Shown here one piece after another: positions 9,592-21,025 of a stretch of 64,000 bases of DNA (positions are counted from its first letter, which is position 1; every line of letters starts with the position of its first letter). The notes below the pieces were generated by a model. The model saw nothing but the letters and a program-made list of their open reading frames with translations, did no database searches and was not told where the DNA came from. A program made the translations under genes and the position numbers. The stretch comes from Eubacteriales bacterium (GTDB lineage: Bacteria > Bacillota > Clostridia > Oscillospirales > CAG-272). The stretch spans positions 22,696-86,695 of the forward strand of contig JAZRAJ010000036.1 in assembly GCA_045634485.1 (NCBI GenBank). Direction: 5' to 3'.

Positions 9592-10089
9592 TTAAACAGA
9601 TAAAATTGCTCTTGCAATCACTCCGGGAATGAAGCAAGCAACTATGGTTAGGAAAAATACCACAAGCCAAATTGCAAGCTTTAGCGCTACATTTTTGGTT
9701 TGCTTCATCAAAAAGAGATTGGCACAGGCAGCAAAACCGCATATCGCACCTCCGATAGCACCTCCGATTATAGGAAATATCTCGCAAAGCGCGGGAACGT
9801 TGCCCCATATCAAAACAAATATACAAATCAACAGAGAGCAAATTGCTTCATACCATCTGCAAGGCTCAGTTACCGTTATTACGTCATTATCTATACACAA
9901 TGAGCAACCAAACAATGCGCTTCCCTTTACCTTACACTCTAACGGTCCGTTTTCACTTTCAAGTATAAACACGTTTCTCGTCTTTTTTGTCAATGCCTGA
10001 CCGTCTATTATAATGCTCCGCTTACCCGTCCAAAAGCTTTCGCAATATTCGATTTGACCGTAGCCAACGTGATGCACGGTTGATTTCAT
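9592..10089 (-). CDS. Hypothetical membrane protein (N-terminal soluble ~85 aa plus 3 predicted TM helices)
   Basis: The ORF has a GGAGGG RBS 7 nt before the ATG at 10087-10089 (the track ORF starts at a TTG two codons upstream). The hydrophobic C-terminal half contains GGAIGGAICGFA. No recognisable motif was found. Confidence 0.6.
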   Translation of the reverse strand: MKSTVHHVGYGQIEYCESFWTGKRSIIIDGQALTKKTRNVFILESENGPLECKVKGSALFGCSLCIDNDVITVTEPCRWYEAICSLLICIFVLIWGNVPALCEIFPIIGGAIGGAICGFAACANLFLMKQTKNVALKLAIWLVVFFLTIVACFIPGVIARAILSV

Positions 10090-10113
10090 AATCAAGCCCT
10101 CCTTTGCTCGGCT

Positions 10114-10821
10114 TTAAGCATTTTTTGTAAGCTTGCACTCGGCGTTTCGCTTTTCTATTAGGGAAACGAGAGTATTAGCAATTGCCCTTGCAAGAGTAGC
10201 GTCGCCGTCGCTTACGGCATCCGAAAACGCCGAAAGCTCTCTTTCAATCTGCAAATTTATTTCCGCAAGAGCCACGCTTGACGTGGGATTTGCGTAGCGA
10301 ATAGCCTCGTAAACTCTTTTTGCATCCGCCTTAAGCTTATCCGAGGGTGCAGAATTCATAATTATCTGCGCCTCTGCCGTAAGATTTTTCATAAAAGAGG
10401 TTTGATTTTTTACCCTTGCATCGATATCGGCAACAATGTCCGAGGCGGTGCTTGCCTTGATAACTGCTATTGCGTTAAACGCAAGAATAATAAAGCATAC
10501 TATAATGCCTCCCCACACGGGAATATCTCTGATAAGCATAACGAGTCCGCCCGTAACGAGCATAGCAATAAGTCCGCTATAGCTTAACAAAATCAAGGAA
10601 ATCTTATAAAAAAGCTTTCTAAGTGTTTTTTGCTTTAGTGCCACAAGCGAGCAAGTAAGCTGACCGATAAATGCAACGGTAATAAATACGTATCCTACCC
10701 AAAACGAGCCCGTAAACTTGCTTACACCGTTAATTTCGTTAGGTGTAACAAATGCTATAACGTTAAATATGGCAAGGCAGATAGCCCAAATAATACTGTA
10801 CGTAGCAATTCTTTTTTTCAT
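10114..10821 (-). CDS. Hypothetical membrane protein (4 predicted TM helices plus a ~110-aa helical C-terminal domain)
   Basis: The ORF has an RBS. The N-terminal TM helices include IIWAICLAIFNVIAFV. The C-terminal half is soluble and Ala/Asp-rich. Confidence 0.6.
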   Translation of the reverse strand: MKKRIATYSIIWAICLAIFNVIAFVTPNEINGVSKFTGSFWVGYVFITVAFIGQLTCSLVALKQKTLRKLFYKISLILLSYSGLIAMLVTGGLVMLIRDIPVWGGIIVCFIILAFNAIAVIKASTASDIVADIDARVKNQTSFMKNLTAEAQIIMNSAPSDKLKADAKRVYEAIRYANPTSSVALAEINLQIERELSAFSDAVSDGDATLARAIANTLVSLIEKRNAECKLTKNA

Positions 10822-10842: not shown

Positions 10843-12003
10843 TTATCTTTTAGCGCCACACTTGGGGCAAAAGTTGCCCGCACGCTCAAATTTATATCCG
10901 CAGCCTGCGCAAGCATCGCTTGGTTTAGCAACGGGTGCGCCACAACCGTCACAGAAGGATGCGCCCGCCAAAAGCTTGGCTCCGCAATTATCGCAATAAA
11001 GCATCGCCGTGCCTGCGTTTACGCTATTTACCGCACCGCCAACCGCATCCTTGACAACGTTGCCAACAACACCTCCGACGCCCGTCATCATTCCAAGTCC
11101 CATTCCGAGATTTGTCATTTGCCCTGCTCCCTCGTTTGAAGCCGCCGCCTCGGCAACGTCAAAGCCACGCTCCTGGGCATAGGTATATCCCTCCTGCGCA
11201 CGCTTGGTTGCCTGAGCCTGAGAATCGATAACCACCCTTTTAGCCTCGGTTTCGGCATCGATAACGCTTACCTCTTGACGAAGCCTTGCCTCTGCAATAT
11301 CTGCGTACTGACGGAAGTGAAGCTCCTTGAATTTTTCATACTGCCTATCTCCGTCGGGCTTTGCGATATTCGTAACGAAAAATCTCTCAAGCGCCACGCC
11401 GTACTCGGCAAAATCATTTGTAAGAAGCCTTTTAATTGCATCCGAGAAAGCTGTAAGATTTTCGTCGATTTCAAAAATATTAATGGCATTCGACTTCATT
11501 ACCTGAGCAATATAGGTCTTAACTCTTGTCATAAGAAATGCTCGGAAAAGCGTTACGAGCTTTTCTTGGCTAAGAAGGCTCTCGGTGCCAACCAATTTAA
11601 GCAAAAGCTTTCTCGCATTATCTGCGCGCAAGGACATCTCGCCCGAGGCGCCTATTGAAATAGGAAAGCCGTACGTAGGCTCTACGTATTGAACCCTTGA
11701 GTCCGTACCCCACTTAATAGCCACTTGCTCGGCTTTATTGATAAAATAAACCTCACAGTGAAATGGGGATTTTCCGCCCGTTGCAAGGCTTAGCGCCTTT
11801 CCGATAAGCGGAATGTTTTGCGTTTCAAGAGTATAGCGCCCCGCCTCAAAGGAATCAAGCGCTTGACCGTTCATAAAGAAGATAGCCTCTTGATTTTCGT
11901 GAACGATAAGCTGCGTTAAGGAATTAAAATCCTCGCAGGGATGCTTCCATATAATCGTGCCGTTATCGCCCTCGTATTTAATTATATCTGTGATTTTTGG
12001 CAT
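10843..12003 (-). CDS. SPFH/band-7 domain protein of the YdjI type (COG4260-like) with a Gly/Met-rich segment and two C-terminal zinc ribbons
   Basis: The N-terminus IIWKHPCEDFNSLTQLIVHENQEAIFFMNGQALD...IKWGT is typical of YdjI-like SPFH proteins. A GMGLGMMTGVGGVVG segment follows. The zinc ribbons are CDNCGAKL...CDGCGAP and CAGCGYKF...CPKCGAKR. Confidence 0.75.
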   Translation of the reverse strand: MPKITDIIKYEGDNGTIIWKHPCEDFNSLTQLIVHENQEAIFFMNGQALDSFEAGRYTLETQNIPLIGKALSLATGGKSPFHCEVYFINKAEQVAIKWGTDSRVQYVEPTYGFPISIGASGEMSLRADNARKLLLKLVGTESLLSQEKLVTLFRAFLMTRVKTYIAQVMKSNAINIFEIDENLTAFSDAIKRLLTNDFAEYGVALERFFVTNIAKPDGDRQYEKFKELHFRQYADIAEARLRQEVSVIDAETEAKRVVIDSQAQATKRAQEGYTYAQERGFDVAEAAASNEGAGQMTNLGMGLGMMTGVGGVVGNVVKDAVGGAVNSVNAGTAMLYCDNCGAKLLAGASFCDGCGAPVAKPSDACAGCGYKFERAGNFCPKCGAKR

Positions 12004-12068: not shown

Positions 12069-14768
12069 TTATCCTACACTCCAACGTGCAAAAAGGTTAA
12101 GATGTCCACCTGAGCCCTTTGGAATCTCAGTAATTTTTTGGGTATAATTAATGTCAGTGTACCAACCCAAAAATATAGCACTCTCAAATGTCATATCCTT
12201 TAAAACTATTGTATCCGATTCAACATTATATCGCACCGGATTGAGAGTATTTGTCCAATCATCCGGGAAAAAGTCAGAATAATAAGTAATTGTATATTCC
12301 TCCGGTGTCCACCTTGCCACCAAGGTAATATCGTTTAATATATTCCACGTTCCTCGGCTAAATTCGAATTTTTCCTCGCCGTTATACCATCCCTCAAAGA
12401 TATAATATGCTCTTGTCGGTTGTGGCAAAAGGTCAACGTATTGACCGTATTTATAGAAAACGCTATCTACAGGAGTACCGTCCGCATAATCAAAGGTTAC
12501 CTTAACATCAATCGGTGACCAATTTGCCTCGTAGTCCTTGTCGCCGTAGCTACCCTTTGGAATAACCAAATCCACAACGGGGGCAAGGACATCGGTTCCC
12601 GTCCAGCCTATAAAGACGTAGCCCACCTTTTGAGGAATAGGCAAGGTAAAGTCTTCCTTTTCTATGTTGTATTTAATAGACTTACTCGATTCTTCTCCGC
12701 CGACCTTATATTTTACAGTATACACCTTTAGCGACCAATTTGCCTTAAAGGTAATATAAAGCACTCCGTCAGTAGCGGAATACTCGGATTGCTCGTAGCT
12801 CCATCCCTTAAAATTATATCCGTTTCGCGTAGCGGATGGAAAGCCGTTAAAGCTTGAATCTATATCATAAGTGATAACGTTACCCTCAAGCCTTGCGCTT
12901 GTGCTTGCCGTAATACGCCCATCGTCACAAAGATATTCGATTTTTGCGGGAACGCCGTTTGACACAACGCTACCTATAACGCTTAGGTAATCAACGCTTG
13001 CCGACTCGCTATCCTTACTTGAATCAAGCGTCGCCTTCGCCTTATCAACAATGCCTCTTGCACGCCTTGCGTCCTGAACGGCGTAAATTGCGTTTTCGTA
13101 TTTTTCAACGTCCTTATCAAGCAAGGCATCATAGTGCGCCTCCTTTAAAAGCGCAATAGCATCGTCGTATTTTTCTTCCTCGAGCAAAGCCATCGCCTGC
13201 TCGTATTTTGAATTGGGAATTTGAATCTTTAAAACAAAAAGGCAGGCAAGTACTGTAAAGATAACCACTATAACAGAAACAAACGAGGCTATATAACCGA
13301 TTATATTAGCCTTTCTTTGCTTTTTAGCCCTTTTGCTCTGCTCTATGCGATAATTCTCCCACTCAACGGTAAGTGCATCAATCTTTTCCTTGCAGCGCTC
13401 TGCGCATTCATTCGCATCACGGTAATCAGCAATAGAGAGAAAGAAGCCCATAGCACGCTTGCACGTAGGGATATCCCTTGCGTTTTCAAGCATATTACTT
13501 GCGCTTCGATAAATGCCCTCCATCTTCTTCTCGTTAATACGATTTCTAACCGTATCTAAGGCATCCAAAAGCTCACTCTTAAGCTTATCGTCCGCAAACT
13601 GAATAGCCTTTTTATAGTTGTTGCTTTTATCAAAAATAATTCCCACGCCGTAAAGCTCGCTCTTGCTTCTGATGCGAAGCTCTATCATAAGCTTGCCAAG
13701 GTACGCCTCGGCATTTTCGGGATCGTGATTTAGCACCTGCTCGTAAAAGGCATCGGCGCGCTCAAGCTCCCTATCCGCAAGAGCCATTGAAGCTCTCCTT
13801 AAAAGAGGCTCAACGCCTACGGCTTCGGTTGCTATAATTGCTTCCTTTACTACGGTTGGCGCCGTTCTCGGCTCAAAATCAAGAATTTTTCTTATTCCTC
13901 GAATAAGGTCCTGCATAAATCCAAGCCTTGACATATCCTGCGCCTGAAGATGCGAGAACTCGTCGGGAAGGTCGTATGGGTCCATATCCCGATATGCGGG
14001 AATAAGCGTTTTCTTAGCGCCGTTTTTGATAAGCGAAAGATATCTTCCCCACTCGTTTTTAACCCATACCGCATTAAAATGCTCCTGCCTTGTGCCAAGC
14101 ACCACCATTATTCTTGCCGAATGTAGCGCCGCAAAAATATACGGCTCGTAGGCTATGCCAAGCTTATCCTCAAGAGTGATTCTTGAAAAGAATACCTTAT
14201 AGCCCTCTCGGGTAAGCTCACGGTAAAGCTCGGTTGCAAGCACGCTATCCTGCGTTCTTCTGCCATTTGCATCGGTTTCCTTATAGCATATAAATATATC
14301 AAAGGGCTCTTCCTTTTGCGATATCGCAAGAATGCCCTTTTGAATTTCATTTATTGCAGTCGCCTCGGACTGATATATCTCACGCTGAGCCTCGTCGGCG
14401 TTTTTGATAGCCGATTTGTAATCCTCATCGTCAAAAATAGACGTAAACTGAGCGCGGTTTACCGTTGGTATACGCCTATGCGTTTGAGGGTCCTCAACGT
14501 ATTCCACACCGTAACGGCAAAGAACTATCGACCAATACGCCTCGGCATCGGTGTTGTCCTCGTTAAGAATATTCTCGTATATTCCCATTGCCTTATCAAA
14601 ATCGTTATTACGGCGAAAATGATTTGCTCTATCGTAAAGATTTGCACGGCGCTCACTGTCAAACTTGGGCAAGGTCTGTCTTGTACCACAATACTCGCAT
14701 ACCGCCACCGACTGCTCCTTGTTGATGTCAAGAGCGCCGCCGCACATCTTACACTTAAAAACTGACAT
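12069..14768 (-). CDS. Zinc-ribbon / TIR / TPR-like / single-TM / InlB B-repeat (Listeria-Bacteroides repeat) multidomain protein, 899 aa
   Basis: The zinc ribbon is CKMCGG..CEYCG (aa 6-28). The TIR domain spans aa ~155-290 (FDIFICYKETD, KVFFSR, AVWVKNEW). The TM helix IIGYIASFVSVIVVIFTVLACLFVL spans aa ~489-513. Four or more C-terminal repeats each carry an aromatic-x-GW motif (YNFKGWS, YVFIGWTG, YIFEGWYNG, IFLGWYTD). Confidence 0.8.
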   Translation of the reverse strand: MSVFKCKMCGGALDINKEQSVAVCEYCGTRQTLPKFDSERRANLYDRANHFRRNNDFDKAMGIYENILNEDNTDAEAYWSIVLCRYGVEYVEDPQTHRRIPTVNRAQFTSIFDDEDYKSAIKNADEAQREIYQSEATAINEIQKGILAISQKEEPFDIFICYKETDANGRRTQDSVLATELYRELTREGYKVFFSRITLEDKLGIAYEPYIFAALHSARIMVVLGTRQEHFNAVWVKNEWGRYLSLIKNGAKKTLIPAYRDMDPYDLPDEFSHLQAQDMSRLGFMQDLIRGIRKILDFEPRTAPTVVKEAIIATEAVGVEPLLRRASMALADRELERADAFYEQVLNHDPENAEAYLGKLMIELRIRSKSELYGVGIIFDKSNNYKKAIQFADDKLKSELLDALDTVRNRINEKKMEGIYRSASNMLENARDIPTCKRAMGFFLSIADYRDANECAERCKEKIDALTVEWENYRIEQSKRAKKQRKANIIGYIASFVSVIVVIFTVLACLFVLKIQIPNSKYEQAMALLEEEKYDDAIALLKEAHYDALLDKDVEKYENAIYAVQDARRARGIVDKAKATLDSSKDSESASVDYLSVIGSVVSNGVPAKIEYLCDDGRITASTSARLEGNVITYDIDSSFNGFPSATRNGYNFKGWSYEQSEYSATDGVLYITFKANWSLKVYTVKYKVGGEESSKSIKYNIEKEDFTLPIPQKVGYVFIGWTGTDVLAPVVDLVIPKGSYGDKDYEANWSPIDVKVTFDYADGTPVDSVFYKYGQYVDLLPQPTRAYYIFEGWYNGEEKFEFSRGTWNILNDITLVARWTPEEYTITYYSDFFPDDWTNTLNPVRYNVESDTIVLKDMTFESAIFLGWYTDINYTQKITEIPKGSGGHLNLFARWSVG

Positions 14769-14779
14769 GAAAATCCCCT

Positions 14780-14971
14780 TTATTTTTTGTCGATAATAAG
14801 GTTTTCAATAGAAAATGCAAGACACTTAGTAATTATTTCATTTCTCGTGCGTCCTGTTTCCTCGGCAATATCATCAAGCTTTTCAATCATATCGTTAGGA
14901 ATTCTAATCGATACCACAGACGTTTCTCCACGAAACTTTTTGCTGGAAATAACAAGCTTCTTGTCGTTCAT
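14780..14971 (-). CDS. Ribbon-helix-helix (CopG/YlcI-like) DNA-binding protein, 63 aa
   Basis: VVSIRIPNDMIEKLDDIAEETGRTRNEIITKCL fits a beta-strand/helix/helix pattern. The RBS GAGGAG is strong. The gene ends 11 nt before the TIR gene start. Confidence 0.65.
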   Translation of the reverse strand: MNDKKLVISSKKFRGETSVVSIRIPNDMIEKLDDIAEETGRTRNEIITKCLAFSIENLIIDKK

Positions 14972-15028: not shown

Positions 15029-15057
15029 ATTGTATCACTTTTGTAAACATTTGTCAA
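15029..15057 (-). promoter_or_regulatory. Sigma-A promoter of the RHH-TIR operon
   Basis: The minus strand reads TTGACA (15052-15057), a 17-nt spacer, then TACAAT (15029-15034). Confidence 0.6.
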
Positions 15058-15071
15058 TGCTTTTTAAAAAT

Positions 15072-15428
15072 TTATTTTATTTTTGCTCCGAATGGGAATA
15101 GCGCAAGCTTCATAATCTTAAAGCACTGAATTCCACGCGGAATACCTATAATGGTTATGCAGTTAAGCAAGCCAACGAATAAGTATACGAGCGCAACCGC
15201 CCATCCGCCAAACACTGCCCAAATCGTGTTGGCAACAGGATGCTCGGTAAAATTCAAATCAATCTTTTTTCCGTACGGCGCTAAAGAAAGCCAAGCTAAT
15301 TTAAAGCACTGAACTCCAAACGGAATTCCAACTATGGTAACGCACAAAATTATTCCCGCTAAAAGCCATAAAAGCGCAAGCCATATACCGCCAAACAGTA
15401 TCCAAATAAAATTTGCTATAATACGCAT
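15072..15428 (-). CDS. yccF: YccF domain-containing inner membrane protein
   Basis: The motif is duplicated: FGGIWLAL...GIPFGVQCFKLA and FGGWAVAL...GIPRGIQCFKIM. I chose the ATG at 15426-15428 behind an AGGAGG RBS. Confidence 0.8.
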   Translation of the reverse strand: MRIIANFIWILFGGIWLALLWLLAGIILCVTIVGIPFGVQCFKLAWLSLAPYGKKIDLNFTEHPVANTIWAVFGGWAVALVYLFVGLLNCITIIGIPRGIQCFKIMKLALFPFGAKIK

Positions 15429-15472
15429 TGAGTAATCCTCCTTTTTTGTCCTCAAAATTAATATTTAAAAAA

Positions 15473-15943
15473 TCAATTGCGTGAGCATTTTTCGGCATCG
15501 ATTGCAAGAACGAGCATCAATGCGCAAACGGCATCGTTGGGGTTATAAACGTCGATAACATAGGTATCGGTCCAATTCCAAAGCTCCTTGGTAACCGTTG
15601 CAACACGCCATCCCGCAGAATTTAAAATATCATAATCCCACTCGGTCCAATTTCCCTCAACTCGCCAGCCGTTGTACTCAACGTTAAACTTAGGTCTAAA
15701 AAACGAAAATTCCTTGTTGATGCTACCTACGTAATTATTTCCAAGATACATCTCAAACTTTGGAAACCACGTAAGCACCCTTTCCTTTATGTAGCCAACC
15801 TCCGTGCCGAGAGCATCGTAAACACGCAAAAGGTGTCCCCACGCAAGCTCTCCCCTTACAGTAAATACGGTGTTGCCCATCTCGTCGTATATATCATAGC
15901 TATCAAACCACGAGAAAAATCTTTGCTTAAATAAAAGCTTCAT
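15473..15943 (-). CDS. LURP-one-related / scramblase-like (Tubby C-terminal-like, YxjI-type) protein
   Basis: The N-terminus is LLFKQRFFSWFDSYDIYDEMGNTVFTV.G, with a repeated beta-hairpin pattern typical of DUF567/LURP1. Its start overlaps the VanZ stop as ATGA. Confidence 0.65.
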   Translation of the reverse strand: MKLLFKQRFFSWFDSYDIYDEMGNTVFTVRGELAWGHLLRVYDALGTEVGYIKERVLTWFPKFEMYLGNNYVGSINKEFSFFRPKFNVEYNGWRVEGNWTEWDYDILNSAGWRVATVTKELWNWTDTYVIDVYNPNDAVCALMLVLAIDAEKCSRN

Positions 15944-16437
15944 TTCGTATTAGTCCCTTCCTCTCTTCCGTCGATAAAATCAATTTTTTGAAGCAGTCTG
16001 TTAATAATCGGAATTTTAATTATTCCGTAGCCTATCATCGCTCCGCTAAGATTAAATATAATATCGTCAACGTCTATAATTCCAACTCGAAGCACGAATT
16101 GCGCCACCTCCACCAATACAACCATAATAAGGATGCAAAGCGTAGCCCGTCGAAATCGGTTAAGTCCCTTAAAAACGCAGGGCAACAACGCTCCCATAGG
16201 TAAAAACAAAACGAAATTGCCAAGAAGATTATAGATTGACAGTGCCTGAAAGCCCTTGCCGTACAGATAAATATAATTCGATATCGTTTTAAACGGAACG
16301 AAATTGGTGAAATACTTAAAATAGTGCGCATAGGAATATTGCGTTCTAAATCCACGGCTTAAAAATACTAAGTATATAAGAATGAGACAGTATATTATAA
16401 AAATCGCCCATAGCACGGAGCGAGCAATTCTTTTCAT
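15940..16437 (-). CDS. VanZ family membrane protein
   Basis: It has four TM segments, an NFVPFKT motif and a LLGNFVLFLPMG motif, all characteristic of VanZ-like proteins. Confidence 0.7.
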   Translation of the reverse strand: MKRIARSVLWAIFIIYCLILIYLVFLSRGFRTQYSYAHYFKYFTNFVPFKTISNYIYLYGKGFQALSIYNLLGNFVLFLPMGALLPCVFKGLNRFRRATLCILIMVVLVEVAQFVLRVGIIDVDDIIFNLSGAMIGYGIIKIPIINRLLQKIDFIDGREEGTNTK

Positions 16438-16530: not shown

Positions 16531-17082
16531 TTACTCAACAACAGTAACCACTACACCGCCGCCAACAAGCTCTACAACAGCCTTTTCATTGGTATTGGGG
16601 TCATAGCAGCCAACGACGTATCTTGCGTTATATCCGCCTATCTCAAGCGCTTCCCTTGCGCTATCCTCCAGAGTAAGCTCCCTTATCTGGTTACCCGCGG
16701 TTATTCTTTGCGAACGGCAAAGCACAACGTCGCCGTTATCCAAAACGAGAGAAACCACCATATCCTGAGTTGACTTTGAGGGGTTAGCGTAATAAAGCGT
16801 AACCTTTCCCTCGGAAAGATCAACAGTTGCGGTTGCGGTATAGGTAAGGTTTACACCCGCTCCGCCAAGCTCGGTTTCAAGCGTTCCACCCGGATCGTTA
16901 ACCATAGGCGACTGATTTGGGTCGGTTGCCTGAGGGGGATAATCGGGAACTATCTTGTCGGTATCCTTATTATTATCCTTATCCGCATTTAACGCAACGC
17001 AAAGTATTATTATACCCACGATAATAAAGGTAAGCAAAACGATAAGACCTGCTATTAAAAGCCTTCTTTTTTTATCATCCAT
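16531..17082 (-). CDS. Hypothetical membrane-anchored extracytoplasmic protein
   Basis: I chose the start MDDKKRR (ATG at 17080-17082). There is one N-terminal TM helix (LLIAGLIVLLTFIIVGIIILCVAL) and then a beta-rich domain. No motif was recognised. Confidence 0.55.
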   Translation of the reverse strand: MDDKKRRLLIAGLIVLLTFIIVGIIILCVALNADKDNNKDTDKIVPDYPPQATDPNQSPMVNDPGGTLETELGGAGVNLTYTATATVDLSEGKVTLYYANPSKSTQDMVVSLVLDNGDVVLCRSQRITAGNQIRELTLEDSAREALEIGGYNARYVVGCYDPNTNEKAVVELVGGGVVVTVVE

Positions 17083-17422
17083 AACGAAATTAATATCCTT
17101 TCGAAAACTAAAACTAAAATCATAGTAACACACATTAATTATAACATATTTATTTTAAAAAATAAAGTCTTTTTTTTATTTTTTTAAAGATATTCGTTTT
17201 GCACAAAAGCCCCCTTATTTTTTGTATATTTCGACACATTTTTTTCTCGTTTGCAAGCCTTAAATTCAAGAAAAAAATTCTTTTTGTTTATTTTCTCATA
17301 AAAGCCGTAATTCTTTTTAGGTAATCTGCCACTTGACCAAAGCCTCAACGTATATTATAATATAATAGTATAGTAATATAATCATCAAGGTTTAGTTAAA
17401 AATAGATACCAAGGAGAGAAAA

Positions 17423-20400
17423 ATGAAATCACGCTTACAGGCATTATCAATATGCTTATTGCTTATAATGCTATTTACGTCAATCGCGCCCTGCGTTAGC
17501 GCAATATCACTTGGAGTAAAGGACTCGGCTCTCAATTCGGCGTCAAGCACAGAATATACGAGAGAGTACACCTTTAACAGTGACACTAAGCTTGCAGAGG
17601 CAAACTCAATGCTTACCGACCCCGCAAAATATAACGGCTCTAAAAGCTTTGAGGCTATTTACGATATCTTTAAGAATGAAATTAAAAACAACACCAACGG
17701 CTATAGCTTTGGAACTCCAAGCTCATCGATTGGAAGCGTTAGCGATGCCTCTTGGCACACGTCAAGCGTTACCCTTCCCACGGTAAGCTCGGCACACCCA
17801 AGGCTTCTCGTAACAAGCGACAGTATTCCTACGATAAGAAAGGCTCTTGAGGAAAGCAATCCCACCAACGAGCGCTTCTTTGCCCTTCTTGATATGAACG
17901 TAGCCGAGAAGAGAGTATACGATGATAGTGGCGAGCCCGTGGACACCGTTGTAGACGGTAAGGCTAACGGCGGTATCAACAGCGGTAAGCTTGGCACTGC
18001 TAAGGATGGCTTCTTTGGCAGACCCGGCGTACATAACTACGATGGCTACTACCTCGAGGTTATTCAGGTAAAGGCTCTCGGTTATCTCATTGACGGACAC
18101 GAGCTTTACGGCAAGCAGGCTATTCACTGCATGAAGCAGGTTTTGCGCACGCTTGATATTCAAAAAATAAACAGTAACCAGGAGCGTGAGTTCGGTAACG
18201 TAATGTTTACCGCCGCACTCGTTTACGACTGGTGCTACGCCCTTCTTGACGCCGAGGACAAAAATCAGCTTATCGCAGGCGTCGAGCATAAGGTAGCCAA
18301 CGTTACCAACGGTTACGGCACAAGCTTCTCGGTTAAGTTCCCGCCTACAAAGGTTGGTGCGGTTTCGGGCCACGGCTCGGAGCGTCAGGTGCTTCGTGAT
18401 ATGCTTGCGGCATCAATTGCATTTTACGGTGACAATAATTCTTGGTATAACTATATAGGAACTCTCGTTTACGAGCATTACGTTCCCGTAAGAAACTATT
18501 ACTTCCGCTCGGGTATTTCCCAGCAGGGTGTTGGTACATATGTTTCAGGACGTCACATAGCCGATATGTTCTCGGCTTGGATGCTTAAGACCTCCACGGG
18601 AAGTCAACCCTACGAGGGAATTGATAAAACCGTTAGAAACTTCTTAGGCTACGAAACCACCCCCGGAAAGATATACACCGACGGCGACGGAACAGGCTTG
18701 CAGCAAAACAATTATGAATTCAGAGCATTAGCATATATGACGGCTTACATCTTTGAGGATGAGGCTATGCTTGCCCAGGCAAGGTCTATGAGGCCTACGG
18801 TTGCGTTTGGTTCGGATAAGAGAATAGACCTTACCATCGAGCTTCACTCGGCGCTATACGTTGCTCTCACGGGTATGTGCGATATAACTCCCGCCGAGGA
18901 TAAATACGAGGGTATGCCACTTATTCAGTATAACGGCTCGCCGGTTGGTCAGTACGTAACGCACGAGGCGTTTGGCGTAAAGGATTCGGCAAGCGTATTT
19001 ATGAAGATTAAGGAGCGTACCACCGCAAACCACGAGCATGCCGATGCGGGTAACTTTATGATTTATTATAAGGGAATGCTTACGGCAGACGGCGGTGTTT
19101 ACAACGGCTACAGTGGCGCTCACACACGATATTACCATCAGGCAACGGTTGGCCACAACAGTATACTCGTTTACGATTCCTCTAAATGGGATTATGACTC
19201 AACAGATCTTGCAACCAAATGGTATTCGGGCGGTCAAAGATGGCCAAACGAGGCGAGCACGCTTTCAGAGCTTAAGGGCGACACCTACAAAACGGGTGAC
19301 GTTATAGGCAACCGCCACGGCTATTACGATTCGGCTAAAACCCAGCCTAAATACGCATACCTCAACGGTAATTTGGCGTACGCCTACCCCTCCGAAACGG
19401 TTGATAGCTTGGGCAGAAGAATGCTTGTGGTTTACACGGGAGATGAGGACGTTCCAATGCTCTTCTTCGTTTACGATACGATTGGAGCGACATCTGCCAA
19501 TTTCGAAAAGAAATTCTTGTTCCACATAGCATCCTCAAGCGCTCCTACTATTAATACTACCAATAAAACAGTTACTACGGTTAACGGCGACGGCAAGCTT
19601 GTTCTTACGGCTATCTCACAAGATACCAAGCTTTCCTCTCAAGGCGGTGCATCTAAAAACTTCCTTATCAACGGAAATCAGAACGCTACAACCAACGGCA
19701 CCGACACAGGCTCTTGGGGACGAGTTGAGGTTGTTGCAACAAACAACAGTAAAAGCTCAAAGATGCTCAACGCTATGTACGTTACCGATGCTACGAACGA
19801 TACGGCATATGCTATGAAATCCATAACAAACGTTTCATCCTATCAAAGCTCCTTAGGAGATTTTGAGGGTGCAGTGTTCAACGGAAAGGTTGCCGCTGTA
19901 TTTGCAAAGAAGGATGTTACGGGTGGAAGAAACGGTACAGTTTCTTATATGAATAAGGGTCAGCACTACTTTACCACCGAGGGTAGCGGAACCATGCAAT
20001 ATTACGTTGACGGAATGGCGGCAGGCAACTGGCAAATCACAGTTAACGGCAAATCCTACGGAACTGTAAATGCAAGCTACGGTCTTCTTATCTTTGACGC
20101 TCCCGCAGGCGACGTTGTTCTTACAAAGGAATCCAATGAGCTAACCACTCTTAAGAGTGAGCTTATTAGCTCTCTTGGCTCAAAAATAAGCAATACAAAC
20201 GGAAAGTACACCACAGAGTCCTACTCCGCATATTCCGAGGCTTACGATGCAATCGTTACCACGATAAACAACGCTACCACCGTGGATGAGGCTAACGCAA
20301 TCAACGTTGCAGACTTAAAAGCGAAAGCAGAAGCAAAGCTTGGTCTATCGCTTGACGAAAAGAAGGCGGCGCTAATATCGGCGCTCGGCTCGAAGAAGTC

Positions 20401-21025
20401 AAGCACAGACTACACCGCAGGCTCTTACTCGGCGTATTCGGCAAGGTACGATGAAATTCTCGCCTCGATAAATAACGCAACCACTATGGATGCCCTTAAC
20501 GCAATCAACGTTACAACACTAAAGGCAGAGGCAGAGGCTCTTCTACAATCAGCAAGCGGAGGCACAGGCTCGGATGCTATAACCGAAACTAACGGCTCGG
20601 CATCCAAGGACGTTACCATATCCTACGACGATAGCTTTTCAAGCGAAGCGGTTTACAGCGTGGATATCACGTGGACCGACCTAACGTTTAATTACAGTGC
20701 GGGCGAGGCACAATGGGATCCCGAGGCTCACGATTATTCCTCCGACGTTATCAGTAACGCAGGGTGGGTTGACTCAAGTGGCTCGATTACCGTAACGAAC
20801 CACTCAAACGCTAAAATATCTATTAAGATAACCTTTGAAAAATCGTCAACTCCAAACGGCGATGCTTACCTATCGGTTTCAAGCAGCAGCTATACGCTTG
20901 AAAGCGCCGAGAACACAACGGTTAGCGGCGCACCCTCCAAAAAATCAACAATTACCGCAAATGGCACGCCAAGCTCTAATAGCAGTATAGGCAAGCTTAT
21001 CGTGGCGGTAAATAAGGTGAGTTAA
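17423..21025 (+). CDS. Secreted heparinase II/III-like polysaccharide lyase (1200 aa) with C-terminal helical repeats and a beta-rich tail domain
   Basis: The signal peptide ends ...PCVSA-IS. The heparinase II/III region is NHEHADAGNFMIYYKGMLTADGGVY...GHNSILV. Two ~68-aa repeats are present (SYSAYSEAYDAIVTTINNATTVDEANAINV and SYSAYSARYDEILASINNATTMDALNAINV). Confidence 0.7.
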   Translation: MKSRLQALSICLLLIMLFTSIAPCVSAISLGVKDSALNSASSTEYTREYTFNSDTKLAEANSMLTDPAKYNGSKSFEAIYDIFKNEIKNNTNGYSFGTPSSSIGSVSDASWHTSSVTLPTVSSAHPRLLVTSDSIPTIRKALEESNPTNERFFALLDMNVAEKRVYDDSGEPVDTVVDGKANGGINSGKLGTAKDGFFGRPGVHNYDGYYLEVIQVKALGYLIDGHELYGKQAIHCMKQVLRTLDIQKINSNQEREFGNVMFTAALVYDWCYALLDAEDKNQLIAGVEHKVANVTNGYGTSFSVKFPPTKVGAVSGHGSERQVLRDMLAASIAFYGDNNSWYNYIGTLVYEHYVPVRNYYFRSGISQQGVGTYVSGRHIADMFSAWMLKTSTGSQPYEGIDKTVRNFLGYETTPGKIYTDGDGTGLQQNNYEFRALAYMTAYIFEDEAMLAQARSMRPTVAFGSDKRIDLTIELHSALYVALTGMCDITPAEDKYEGMPLIQYNGSPVGQYVTHEAFGVKDSASVFMKIKERTTANHEHADAGNFMIYYKGMLTADGGVYNGYSGAHTRYYHQATVGHNSILVYDSSKWDYDSTDLATKWYSGGQRWPNEASTLSELKGDTYKTGDVIGNRHGYYDSAKTQPKYAYLNGNLAYAYPSETVDSLGRRMLVVYTGDEDVPMLFFVYDTIGATSANFEKKFLFHIASSSAPTINTTNKTVTTVNGDGKLVLTAISQDTKLSSQGGASKNFLINGNQNATTNGTDTGSWGRVEVVATNNSKSSKMLNAMYVTDATNDTAYAMKSITNVSSYQSSLGDFEGAVFNGKVAAVFAKKDVTGGRNGTVSYMNKGQHYFTTEGSGTMQYYVDGMAAGNWQITVNGKSYGTVNASYGLLIFDAPAGDVVLTKESNELTTLKSELISSLGSKISNTNGKYTTESYSAYSEAYDAIVTTINNATTVDEANAINVADLKAKAEAKLGLSLDEKKAALISALGSKKSSTDYTAGSYSAYSARYDEILASINNATTMDALNAINVTTLKAEAEALLQSASGGTGSDAITETNGSASKDVTISYDDSFSSEAVYSVDITWTDLTFNYSAGEAQWDPEAHDYSSDVISNAGWVDSSGSITVTNHSNAKISIKITFEKSSTPNGDAYLSVSSSSYTLESAENTTVSGAPSKKSTITANGTPSSNSSIGKLIVAVNKVS

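Follow-up and report, generated by a model that had tools for sequence, protein, structure and literature searches.

The 64,000-nt stretch of contig JAZRAJ010000036.1 from a Eubacteriales bacterium analyzed here (the window, in whose coordinates all positions are given) carries at 12069..14768, on the minus strand, a real open reading frame (ORF) encoding an 899-residue TIR protein. The protein (TIR-TM) consists of an N-terminal zinc ribbon (ZnR), a helical domain, a TIR domain and TPR-like helices, which a single transmembrane (TM) helix separates from a C-terminal tail of Flg_new repeats. An earlier model-generated reading of the same DNA (the first-pass annotation) had treated the gene as a lone one; it is instead one part of a conserved operon of five co-directional genes, separated by gaps of 11–65 nt, which encode RHH, TIR-TM, SPFH, M235, and m167, in this order. 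The features of the operon are as follows.

15029..15057, minus strand: putative promoter-like site upstream of RHH, TTGACA-17-(TG)TACAAT, with 11/12 consensus matches and an extended -10
14780..14971, minus strand: RHH (CopG-like) DNA-binding protein, 63 aa, first operon gene (Pfam RHH_1, 29 bits against 20.5)
12069..14768, minus strand: ZnR-helical-TIR-TPR-TM-Flg_new protein (TIR-TM), 899 aa (ORF, Pfam, Kyte–Doolittle, AlphaFold2, and Foldseek)
10843..12003, minus strand: SPFH protein, 386 aa, soluble, with Band_7_1, a Gly-rich linker, and a C-terminal double zinc ribbon
10114..10821, minus strand: membrane protein M235, 235 aa, with four TM helices and a cytoplasmic helical bundle
9592..10095, minus strand: membrane protein m167, 167 aa, last operon gene, with a beta-rich N-terminal part of about 85 aa and three TM helices
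9458..9481, minus strand: hairpin terminator-like site after m167, with a 10-bp stem and a T-rich tail (pattern match)

The promoter-like and terminator-like sites that bracket the five genes are pattern matches, and the terminator-like site is common to m167 and a convergent cytidine-deaminase gene. Only 11 nt lie between the stop codon of RHH and the start codon of TIR-TM. Within the TIR-TM gene, the domains are arranged as follows.

14664..14768, minus strand: residues 1–35, Cys4 zinc ribbon (C6, C9, C24, C27; conservation, AlphaFold2, weak Pfam match)
14313..14663, minus strand: residues 36–152, conserved helical domain with a beta-hairpin at 88–103 (83% mean identity, AlphaFold2)
13878..14306, minus strand: residues 155–297, TIR domain with W235-x-x-x-E239 in helix alphaC (Pfam TIR_2, Foldseek)
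13335..13877, minus strand: residues 298–478, disordered linker (299–316), then a TPR-like helical spacer (AlphaFold2, Pfam TPR_19)
13230..13334, minus strand: residues 479–513, basic stop-transfer KRAKKQRK and TM helix 488–513 (Kyte–Doolittle, AlphaFold2)
12072..13229, minus strand: residues 514–899, predicted extracellular part (Pfam Flg_new, NCBIfam TIGR02543, Foldseek), made up of a helical stalk (514–606) and Flg_new/InlB-B repeats at about 608–680, 683–752, 754–822, and 825–898

The zinc ribbon lies at residues 1–35, where the first-pass annotation had placed it: its CxxC pairs at 6/9 and 24/27 are kept in 118–120 of 121 homologues, Pfam A2L_zn_ribbon matches residues 5–31 weakly, and the AlphaFold2 (AF2) model, which was built on an alignment of 121 sequences and has a mean pLDDT of 84.9, contains four short strands in residues 1–32. 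The following region had been described as TPR-like (residues 40–150) with the motif EAYWSIVLCRYGVEYVEDP. The motif is present, at residue 76, but the region is a distinct conserved helical domain and not a plain TPR array; AF2 models helices and a beta-hairpin at 39–152 (pLDDT 80–96), and the sole Pfam match within residues 36–152 is TPR_14 at 43–78, which is below threshold, as are the TPR matches at 322–358 and 522–544. This domain is proposed to be a docking or regulatory module. The TIR domain, previously delimited at about residues 155–290 (correctly converted to DNA positions 13899–14306), is borne out by profile and fold, although it reaches about residue 297. Pfam TIR_2 (PF13676) matches residues 158–281 with 41.3 bits against a cut-off of 28 (E 2.6e-10), and in the AF2 model residues 158–297 form a canonical beta-alpha TIR fold (betaA to alphaE, pLDDT about 85–90) that superposes on the TIRs of AbTir, MAL, and L7. 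In the Foldseek search against the PDB, target-normalised TM-scores were 0.73 for AbTir-3AD (7uxu), 0.70 for the MAL filament (5uzb), and 0.63 for L7 (7vu8), each with probability 1.0, and the TIRs of Roq1 and RPP1 were also matched. Sequence searches of the PDB with the whole protein or the ectodomain returned nothing significant, and the best match of the TIR alone is the TLR15/TLR2 TIR (E 0.048), in which WCQYE is aligned to WVKNE. The window protein is a member of the TIR superfamily by profile and by fold.

C-terminal to the TIR domain, the linker 299–316 is disordered (pLDDT <50) and is followed by TPR-like helices at 319–445, with a Pfam TPR_19 match at 329–358, in agreement with the helices read earlier at residues 320–480. 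This spacer varies in length within the family. A single continuous helix (452–530) then runs through the TM segment. The stop-transfer KRAKKQRK begins at residue 479, as noted previously, and the TM helix anticipated at about residues 489–513 corresponds to one strong hydrophobic segment, 488–513, with a Kyte–Doolittle 19-residue maximum of 2.95; the sole other 19-residue span above 1.4 scores 1.6, at residue 718. Beyond the membrane, AF2 models a helical stalk (534–603) and four beta-rich repeats (608–898), matching the roughly 90 helical residues and at least four InlB-B repeats expected there. Flg_new is found in four stretches (77.5 bits against 27, E 8.5e-22), NCBIfam TIGR02543 agrees with Pfam on the repeats (74.6 bits against 20.95, E 5.7e-21), and the four repeats end in A-x-W at residues 676, 748, 818, and 894; with the tandem repeat profile above threshold, the protein belongs among the Listeria–Bacteroides/InlB B-repeat proteins. 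The ectodomain matches 7kpj, 7yl4, and the InlB B-repeat in Foldseek, and the best structural match of the tail is an immunoglobulin-binding protein of R. gnavus, followed by the surface protein YwfG. The R. gnavus superantigens IbpA and IbpB, which bind immunoglobulin, were considered as family members and rejected, as they share the repeat fold alone: they are SPXTG wall proteins and sortase substrates (PMC13121745), whereas the window protein has no sortase motif and is TM-anchored.

Relatives of different length accompany this form of the protein. Where the window protein ends, after the fourth Flg_new repeat, its closest longer relative (P0002, 1,403 aa, 83% identical) goes on with more repeats and BspA-type leucine-rich repeats (LRRs; Pfam LRR_5). 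The relative P0001 (98% identical) and the cluster member P0381 are also 899 aa long, and a third member has 897 aa. Because of these relatives, and because SPFH starts 65 nt downstream, the short form is taken to be a stable variant and not a recent truncation.

Exactly one TM core is present in 120 of the 121 family members whose topology was examined, and the remaining member has more than one. The N-terminal flank of the TM helix is more positive than the C-terminal flank in all 121 (mean net charge +5.1 against +0.1); in the window protein, seven K/R and two D/E residues on the N side face three K/R and six D/E residues on the C side. The layout is thus a property of the family and not due to chance. 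No topology other than N-in/C-out is workable, as the protein has no N-terminal signal peptide and carries the Cys4 zinc ribbon and the TIR domain N-terminal to the TM helix. These results support a type II layout in which the ZnR-TIR head is cytoplasmic and a single TM helix leads to extracellular repeats, as the positive-inside rule had led the first-pass annotation to propose, and the resemblance of the ectodomain folds to known surface proteins (InlB B-repeat, R. gnavus Ibp, YwfG) fits this placement. The comparison with Toll-like receptors (TLRs) drawn in that annotation holds for the logic of input outside and TIR inside but not for the orientation, which is the reverse of that of animal TLRs. 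We hold this architecture and topology with high confidence. Depletion of cysteines from the ectodomain was dropped as topology evidence, since the contrast in the window protein (1 Cys against 9) amounts to only 1.55% against 1.91% across the family.

TIR-TM genes keep constant company. At least 507 TIR-TM loci were found in species-representative genomes, and the locus counts given below refer to the best 80 of these, all of which are in gut or rumen Clostridia. Co-directional homologues of SPFH and M235 occur in 59 and 58 of the 80 loci, compared with one of 80 for each of five unrelated window neighbours used as a control, and unbiased clustering of the neighbours in the 80 loci yielded no recurrent partner besides SPFH and M235. 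The commonest order is SPFH, M235, TIR-TM, sometimes with extra TIR-TM copies, and the order in the window is the second commonest. An RHH homologue lies directly upstream in 16 of the 80 loci, and RHH also occurs at L004, L086, L088, and L089; homologues of m167 occupy the same position at L005–L009. M235 matches nothing in Pfam or PADLOC, its 578 homologues are all annotated as hypothetical, and its AF2 model (pLDDT 68) gave only generic helical bundles and nothing below E 0.3 in Foldseek against the PDB. Since these 578 homologues stand against thousands of TIR-TM clusters, and TIR-TM genes occur both in tandem (2–4 genes in 18 of the 80 loci) and solo, the gene counts suggest that one SPFH/M235 pair may serve several receptors. 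A search from the M235 side recovered the same core of RHH, SPFH, and M235, and the proteins that accompany it always start with a zinc ribbon, being TIR-TM receptors, soluble ZnR-TPR proteins of 364–472 aa, or a TIR-less ZnR beta-propeller protein with TM helices.

The SPFH protein matches Band_7_1 (131.5 bits, 4.3e-38) and DZR (34.6 bits, 2.2e-8) in Pfam and has no TM segment; a PDB sequence search with it gave no significant match. In B. subtilis, the soluble SPFH protein YdjI, which has a zinc finger at its C-terminus, is recruited to the membrane by YdjH and the zinc-ribbon TM protein YdjG (PMC8581546). The operon protein has the YdjI/SamI layout of the PspA-YdjGHI (SamGHI) system (Band_7_1, no TM segment, a low-complexity linker, a C-terminal zinc finger, and membrane partners), a likeness of layout and description only. 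Here, the ZnR-TM protein additionally carries a TIR domain and a large variable ectodomain, and no PspA/ESCRT-III-like cluster is among the recurrent neighbours in the 80 loci.

Two further observations concern the operon proteins. As listed, m167 starts at a TTG codon (MIMKST...), and this exact sequence is missing from the protein collection in which its four operon neighbours are present; the homologues at L005–L009 begin at the ATG two codons further on (MKSTVHH...), which is probably the true start here too. Soluble proteins with a zinc ribbon (MKQLTCEMCGS...) and TPRs, 364–472 aa long and without TIR or TM segments, lie beside or between SPFH and M235 at L086:5902-6996, L088:5567-6985, L027:9844-11247, and L073:16536-17705, and could be extra zinc-ribbon clients or adaptors of an SPFH/M235 platform.

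The family is very large and combines a constant head with a variable tail. A full-length search gave at least 8,000 matches, conserved over the first 55–60% or so of the protein, and an exhaustive search with residues 1–310 gave 7,153 clusters (50% identity) at E<=1e-3 and 4,056 at E<=1e-30, in which protein length ranges from 467 to 3,073 aa. Carriers in the 80 loci belong to the Oscillospiraceae, Acutalibacteraceae, Lachnospiraceae, Christensenellaceae, and Anaerovoracaceae and include isolates of Anaerotignum (sp. MSJ-24, L049) and Hominifimenecus (sp. rT4P-3, L036). Carriage by phages or prophages was rejected: one of 2.9 million IMG/VR contigs and none of 50,697 phage genomes matched, so the gene is not a phage gene. 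Over 120 homologues, mean identity is 83% in the helical domain and 85% in the TIR domain, compared with 34–44% in the linker and spacer, 19% in the TM helix, and 27–36% in the ectodomain, and W235 and E239 are invariant in all 121 homologues. Among orthologues of the same architecture, the head is 83–94% identical and the tail 37–78%, the rate of evolution of the tail being several times that of the head. Gene conversion was rejected as the cause of the constant head; tandem paralogues, with 58–90% identity in head DNA, are not homogenised, and the constancy is therefore ascribed to purifying selection.

The relatives that the first-pass annotation mentioned in other Clostridia, with variable C-termini, do exist, and comparison of their C-terminal regions reveals unrelated domains swapped onto the same head: Flg_new, LRR_5 (BspA), LRR_8, DUF6273, or RCC1. 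Database names for these relatives are generic ("TIR domain-containing", "InlB B-repeat-containing", "DUF6273 domain-containing"). In a census of 99 full-length TIR-TM ORFs from species-representative loci, made by local phmmer with exemplar tails, DUF6273 was the commonest tail (55/99), followed by RCC1 (14/99), Flg_new with or without LRR_5 (12/99), LRR_5 alone (4/99), and DUF6273 together with RCC1 (1/99), while 13/99 had none of these four. The Flg_new tail of the window protein is a minority variant, and one that is not associated with a diversity-generating retroelement (DGR).

Such retroelements target the ectodomain in sister genes. In at least four loci (L014, L024, L034, and L040), the gene order is TIR-TM, Avd, template repeat (TR), and reverse transcriptase (RT), with bAvd and RVT_1 confirmed by Pfam. 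A repeat of about 125 nt matches the final 125 nt or so of the TIR-TM gene, the variable repeat (VR), with 80–87% identity, and of the 84 mismatches between VR and TR, 79 are at adenine positions in the TR, the copy nearer the RT and one rich in AAY codons. Owing to these adenine-specific mismatches and the adjacent RT and Avd genes, the four TIR-TM genes are judged genuine DGR targets. The VR encodes CWWWLRSPG...VRPAL at about residues 770–850, and as this is more than 200 residues C-terminal to the TM helix, the VR product would be outside the cell. DUF6273 has been documented as a DGR-target domain of phage proteins in gut Clostridia (PMC11792537). The 64-kb window contains neither RT nor Avd, and its own TIR-TM gene is not a DGR target. 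As facts of the sequences, we regard the operon and the DGR association as practically certain. Downstream of other TIR-TM genes lie fragments of Avd and/or RT (L059:11006-11308, L060:13779-14579, L056:12700-12981, L070:13724-13900, and L083:12419-12817); they look like decayed DGRs, suggesting that the association may once have been commoner in the family than it now is, with four intact DGRs.

In about half of the loci with SPFH, M235, and TIR-TM, a slot of 250–2,000 nt, with a small co-directional gene that differs between genomes, separates M235 from TIR-TM (L013, L014, L020, L023, L025, L032, L038, L040, L047, L056, L065, L071, L076, L081, and L083; for example, L025:9515-9967 and L032:9384-9995). 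The slot genes encode a ThsB-like standalone TIR (PADLOC PDC-S66, 4e-41), HEPN proteins of the RiboL-PSP and pEK499_p136 types, CARF-HEPN-like proteins, DUF4365 (REase-like, pAgo-associated), and DUF2971 (PADLOC candidate PDC-S31), and they could be interchangeable effectors of the system. In ten loci (L013, L014, L023, L025, L028, L033, L038, L040, L071, and L083; for example, L040:6419-7261), the gene immediately upstream of SPFH encodes a tyrosine recombinase of about 280 aa (Phage_integrase, 6e-26); at least eight of these ten also have a slot insert, and L014 and L040 also have a DGR, a pattern that suggests cassette capture or operon mobility. Operons without a TIR gene occur at L089 (3182-7702) and L090 and encode RHH, SPFH with DZR, a 790-aa protein, and M235. 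The 790-aa protein at L089 has a zinc ribbon, a helical region, an LRP1-like beta-propeller, and two C-terminal TM helices, and the island around it contains three serine recombinases, SIR2_2, Peptidase_S24, and an AAA_21 and HEPN_RiboL-PSP pair.

We read the window protein as an outside-in type II surface receptor with TIR output, belonging to a conflict or defence system of gut Clostridia; on this reading we are evenly poised between acceptance and doubt. The conflict role is most likely directed against phages or other invaders, and we infer signalling, ligand binding, and NADase activity for the receptor. The role of the ectodomain as a sensor is strengthened by the swapping of tails on a constant head, the fast evolution of the tail, and DGR targeting in sister genes. 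In the mechanism we propose, SPFH would be recruited to the membrane by M235 (and m167), and the resulting platform would dock one or several TIR-TM receptors by their zinc-ribbon heads, holding them apart or silent; we infer the docking because SPFH shares the YdjI/SamI layout. An extracellular ligand, for which a phage particle, a receptor-binding protein, the surface of a competitor, or another polyvalent structure is a candidate, would bind the ectodomain and cause the receptors to cluster or rearrange. The sensor would consist of the four Listeria–Bacteroides repeats in the window copy and of BspA-type LRRs, RCC1 propellers, or DGR-hypermutated DUF6273 in sister genes. TIR catalysis requires self-association, as in SARM1, AbTir, and plant TIRs, and clustering would bring the TIR domains together to form the active site. 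The assembled TIRs would cleave NAD+, resulting in depletion or in a signal derived from ADP-ribose, and this output may have a direct effect on the cell or be relayed by accessory effectors, for instance the HEPN, TIR, DUF4365, and DUF2971 proteins encoded in the slot elsewhere. RHH would autoregulate transcription of the operon.

Several observations weigh against this receptor reading. The mean identity of the head across Clostridial families, 79%, is unusually high for a defence protein. The W-x-x-x-E motif is also present in non-catalytic animal TLR TIRs, and since the best PDB sequence match is to such a TIR, with WCQYE aligned to WVKNE, the motif, though required for NADase activity, is no proof of it. 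The slot genes could be independent defence genes that use a hotspot, and the window operon itself has neither a slot insert nor an accessory effector. Its surroundings are housekeeping genes (MutS, ValRS, PcrA, and RadA) and not a defence island, and PADLOC (E<=0.1), run with six operon and neighbour proteins excluding m167, gave no match, leaving TIR-TM, SPFH, and M235 unmatched; NCBIfam ThcB4 reaches 17 bits for the window protein against a cut-off of 220. A TPR-like hairpin repeat (Y..A..L...G.Y.EAI..F..L.GYKDS) is both cytoplasmic and extracellular in 58 of 99 family proteins. Finally, the gut-specific distribution and the BspA-LRR, Flg_new, and Ibp-like ectodomains fit adhesion or host binding just as well.

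The protein might accordingly be a surface adhesin or host-binding display, which we consider unlikely. Its ectodomains would bind mucus glycans, immunoglobulins, microbes, or particles, while the ZnR-TIR head and SPFH/M235 would merely anchor, cluster, or sort them, with the TIR serving as a non-catalytic oligomerisation scaffold. Confinement to gut and rumen Clostridia among the 80 loci, adhesin-typical BspA-LRR and Flg_new domains, and a tail whose best matches are the immunoglobulin-binding protein and YwfG are all consistent with this, as are the organisation of membrane domains by SPFH proteins, the presence of WxxxE in scaffolding TIRs of the TLR type, the housekeeping neighbourhood, and the general view of cellular DGR targets as proteins anchored in the membrane that bind substrates outside the cell (Roux et al.). 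However, Gram-positive adhesins are normally anchored through a sortase motif or lipobox and have no need of a cytoplasmic domain of about 490 residues, and here the strongest constraint falls on the head, with its invariant catalytic-type residues, and not on the tail. Nuclease and TIR effectors in the variable slot, and TIR-less operon variants in defence-type islands, also argue against display. By analogy with PspA-YdjGHI, the operon might instead be an envelope-stress module in which the ZnR-TM protein would correspond to YdjG, M235 to YdjH, and SPFH to YdjI; the ectodomain would monitor the wall or envelope, and the TIR would replace the PspA output through NAD metabolism or a stress signal. 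We regard this as quite improbable: the recurrent neighbours in the 80 loci include no PspA/ESCRT-III gene, and an envelope monitor would have no need of hundreds of alternative ectodomains, DGR hypermutation, and 2–4 tandem paralogues, even though SPFH has the YdjI layout, YdjG is itself a zinc-ribbon TM protein, the RHH-SPFH-M235 core also occurs with ZnR proteins that have no TIR, and the locus is chromosomal and set among housekeeping genes.

Very unlikely, in our estimate, are a flow of information from inside to outside, in which the head would sense an intracellular cue and the ectodomain would be the effector, for example by altering surface properties or causing aggregation, and a toxin–antitoxin-like arrangement, in which RHH would neutralise a toxic TIR. 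Binding-type ectodomains and their targeting by DGRs argue that the outside is the input. The toxin–antitoxin-like arrangement could draw on the 11-nt spacing of RHH and TIR-TM, weak NCBIfam matches of RHH to the antitoxins BrnA, RelB, and VapB, and the established toxicity of active TIR NADases, but these antitoxin scores are 14–29 bits against cut-offs of 50–60, and a protein of 63 aa has little space for a toxin-binding tail. RHH is moreover found in only 16 of the 80 loci, precedes SPFH and not the TIR gene where the order is SPFH, M235, TIR-TM, and at L089 goes with an operon devoid of TIR.

As an outside-in receptor, the protein would share with animal TLRs and the IL-1 receptor a single-pass architecture, an extracellular repeat domain for binding, and a cytoplasmic TIR. 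Many paralogues also carry LRRs outside (LRR_5/LRR_8), and in both groups one signalling domain is shared by a germline repertoire of receptors. The window protein is nevertheless not a TLR: it is type II, has no signal peptide, and carries its TIR N-terminal to the TM helix; the LRRs of its family are BspA-type and not TLR-type, with Flg_new in their place in the window copy; and its head has an additional zinc ribbon and helical domain, with SPFH/M235 as partners in place of MyD88-type adaptors. The likeness is, by analogy, a convergence at the level of the fold and not orthology or homology of architecture. With bacterial TIR defence proteins (Thoeris ThsB, AbTir/TcpB-type NADases, SpbK, TIR-STING, TIR-SAVED, and PycTIR), it shares a fold closest to AbTir-3AD, the invariant W-x-x-x-E, and conflict-type slot genes. 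Those proteins, however, are soluble, and what they detect is an intracellular cue or a second messenger, whereas the window protein is anchored in the membrane and carries its sensor outside the cell. Its operon has no fixed ThsA-like effector, and the protein falls outside Thoeris and the PADLOC TIR systems.

Hypermutated C-type-lectin-like sensors fused to immune effectors, including TIR, have been described in multicellular bacteria (PMC7159879, Kaur et al. 2020; PMC10907252, Dore et al. 2024). These CLec-STAND/CHAT/TIR proteins resemble the present family in having hypermutated sensor domains in immune-type proteins, as the sister genes of the window gene are DGR targets. They are mostly cytoplasmic and NTPase-centred (cyanobacteria, Thiohalocapsa), whereas the family described here is type II with the VR outside, lacks an NTPase, and is encoded with SPFH. 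The PknB/PrkC kinases with PASTA repeats offer another type II layout in Firmicutes, with an N-terminal enzymatic domain and C-terminal repeat sensors, and a weak NCBIfam match of this type spans the TM region of the window protein; their output is a kinase and their PASTA repeats are conserved, in contrast to the TIR output and hypervariable ectodomains found here. In the literature searched, TIR is nowhere linked with SPFH, DUF6273, Flg_new, or type II membrane topology, no earlier description of the family came to light, and the global DGR survey (Roux et al.) makes no mention of TIR. TIR-based conflict systems with hypervariable sensors are thus already known; distinctive are the extracellular sensor on a type II chassis, the SPFH/M235 platform, and the very large expansion in gut commensals.

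To our knowledge, characterised bacterial TIR systems detect infection within the cell. A TIR receptor with its sensing directed outward would, if confirmed, extend bacterial immunity with a new layer of surveillance at the surface of the cell, and would be the closest functional analogue of animal TLR logic yet found in bacteria. A broader and more tentative idea, which we think rather unlikely to hold, is that gut Clostridia possess a germline-plus-somatic repertoire of surface immune receptors built on one TIR head in an SPFH platform. If so, dozens to thousands of ectodomains, many of them continuously rewritten by DGRs, would be mounted on an invariant head; phages and other invaders would be detected at the surface before genome entry and answered by TIR-catalysed NAD+ chemistry; and bacteria would have a counterpart of Toll-like or antigen receptors with programmable specificity. 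The DGR link would give hypermutation in abundant human-gut Clostridia a signalling purpose beyond "adhesion", and the SPFH link would assign a defined client to the poorly understood flotillin-like proteins of bacteria. The family, which is very large, is confined to commensals of gut and rumen, bacteria with an influence on the health of the host, its constant head with an exchangeable and even self-mutating sensor is a modular chassis that could be engineered, and the steps of the model are directly testable in the isolates that carry it.

Some minor observations complete the description of these loci. The TPR-like hairpin repeat has one copy on the ectodomain side of the window protein, at residues 519–545 (DNA about 13134–13214), and is sometimes a near-perfect DNA duplicate elsewhere (L024 5828-6027 and L014 11558-11935). 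A gene of about 484 codons with SLFN_AlbA_2 and HATPase_c_4 domains lies less than 6 kb from the TIR-TM operon in two unrelated genomes (L001:17353-18807 and L004:4942-6393) and was not seen in the window. Four small minus-strand genes just upstream of the window operon (15072-16437 and 16531-17133) are taken as unrelated neighbours, since each is found in just one of the 80 loci; their products are YccF, VanZ, a LURP-one/scramblase-like protein, and a protein of 200 aa with a single TM helix. On the other strand, 2.6 kb from the operon, a 1,200-aa ORF (17423-21025, plus strand) begins with a signal-peptide-like segment, has helical and beta modules repeated in its C-terminal part, and probably encodes a secreted or cell-surface enzyme.

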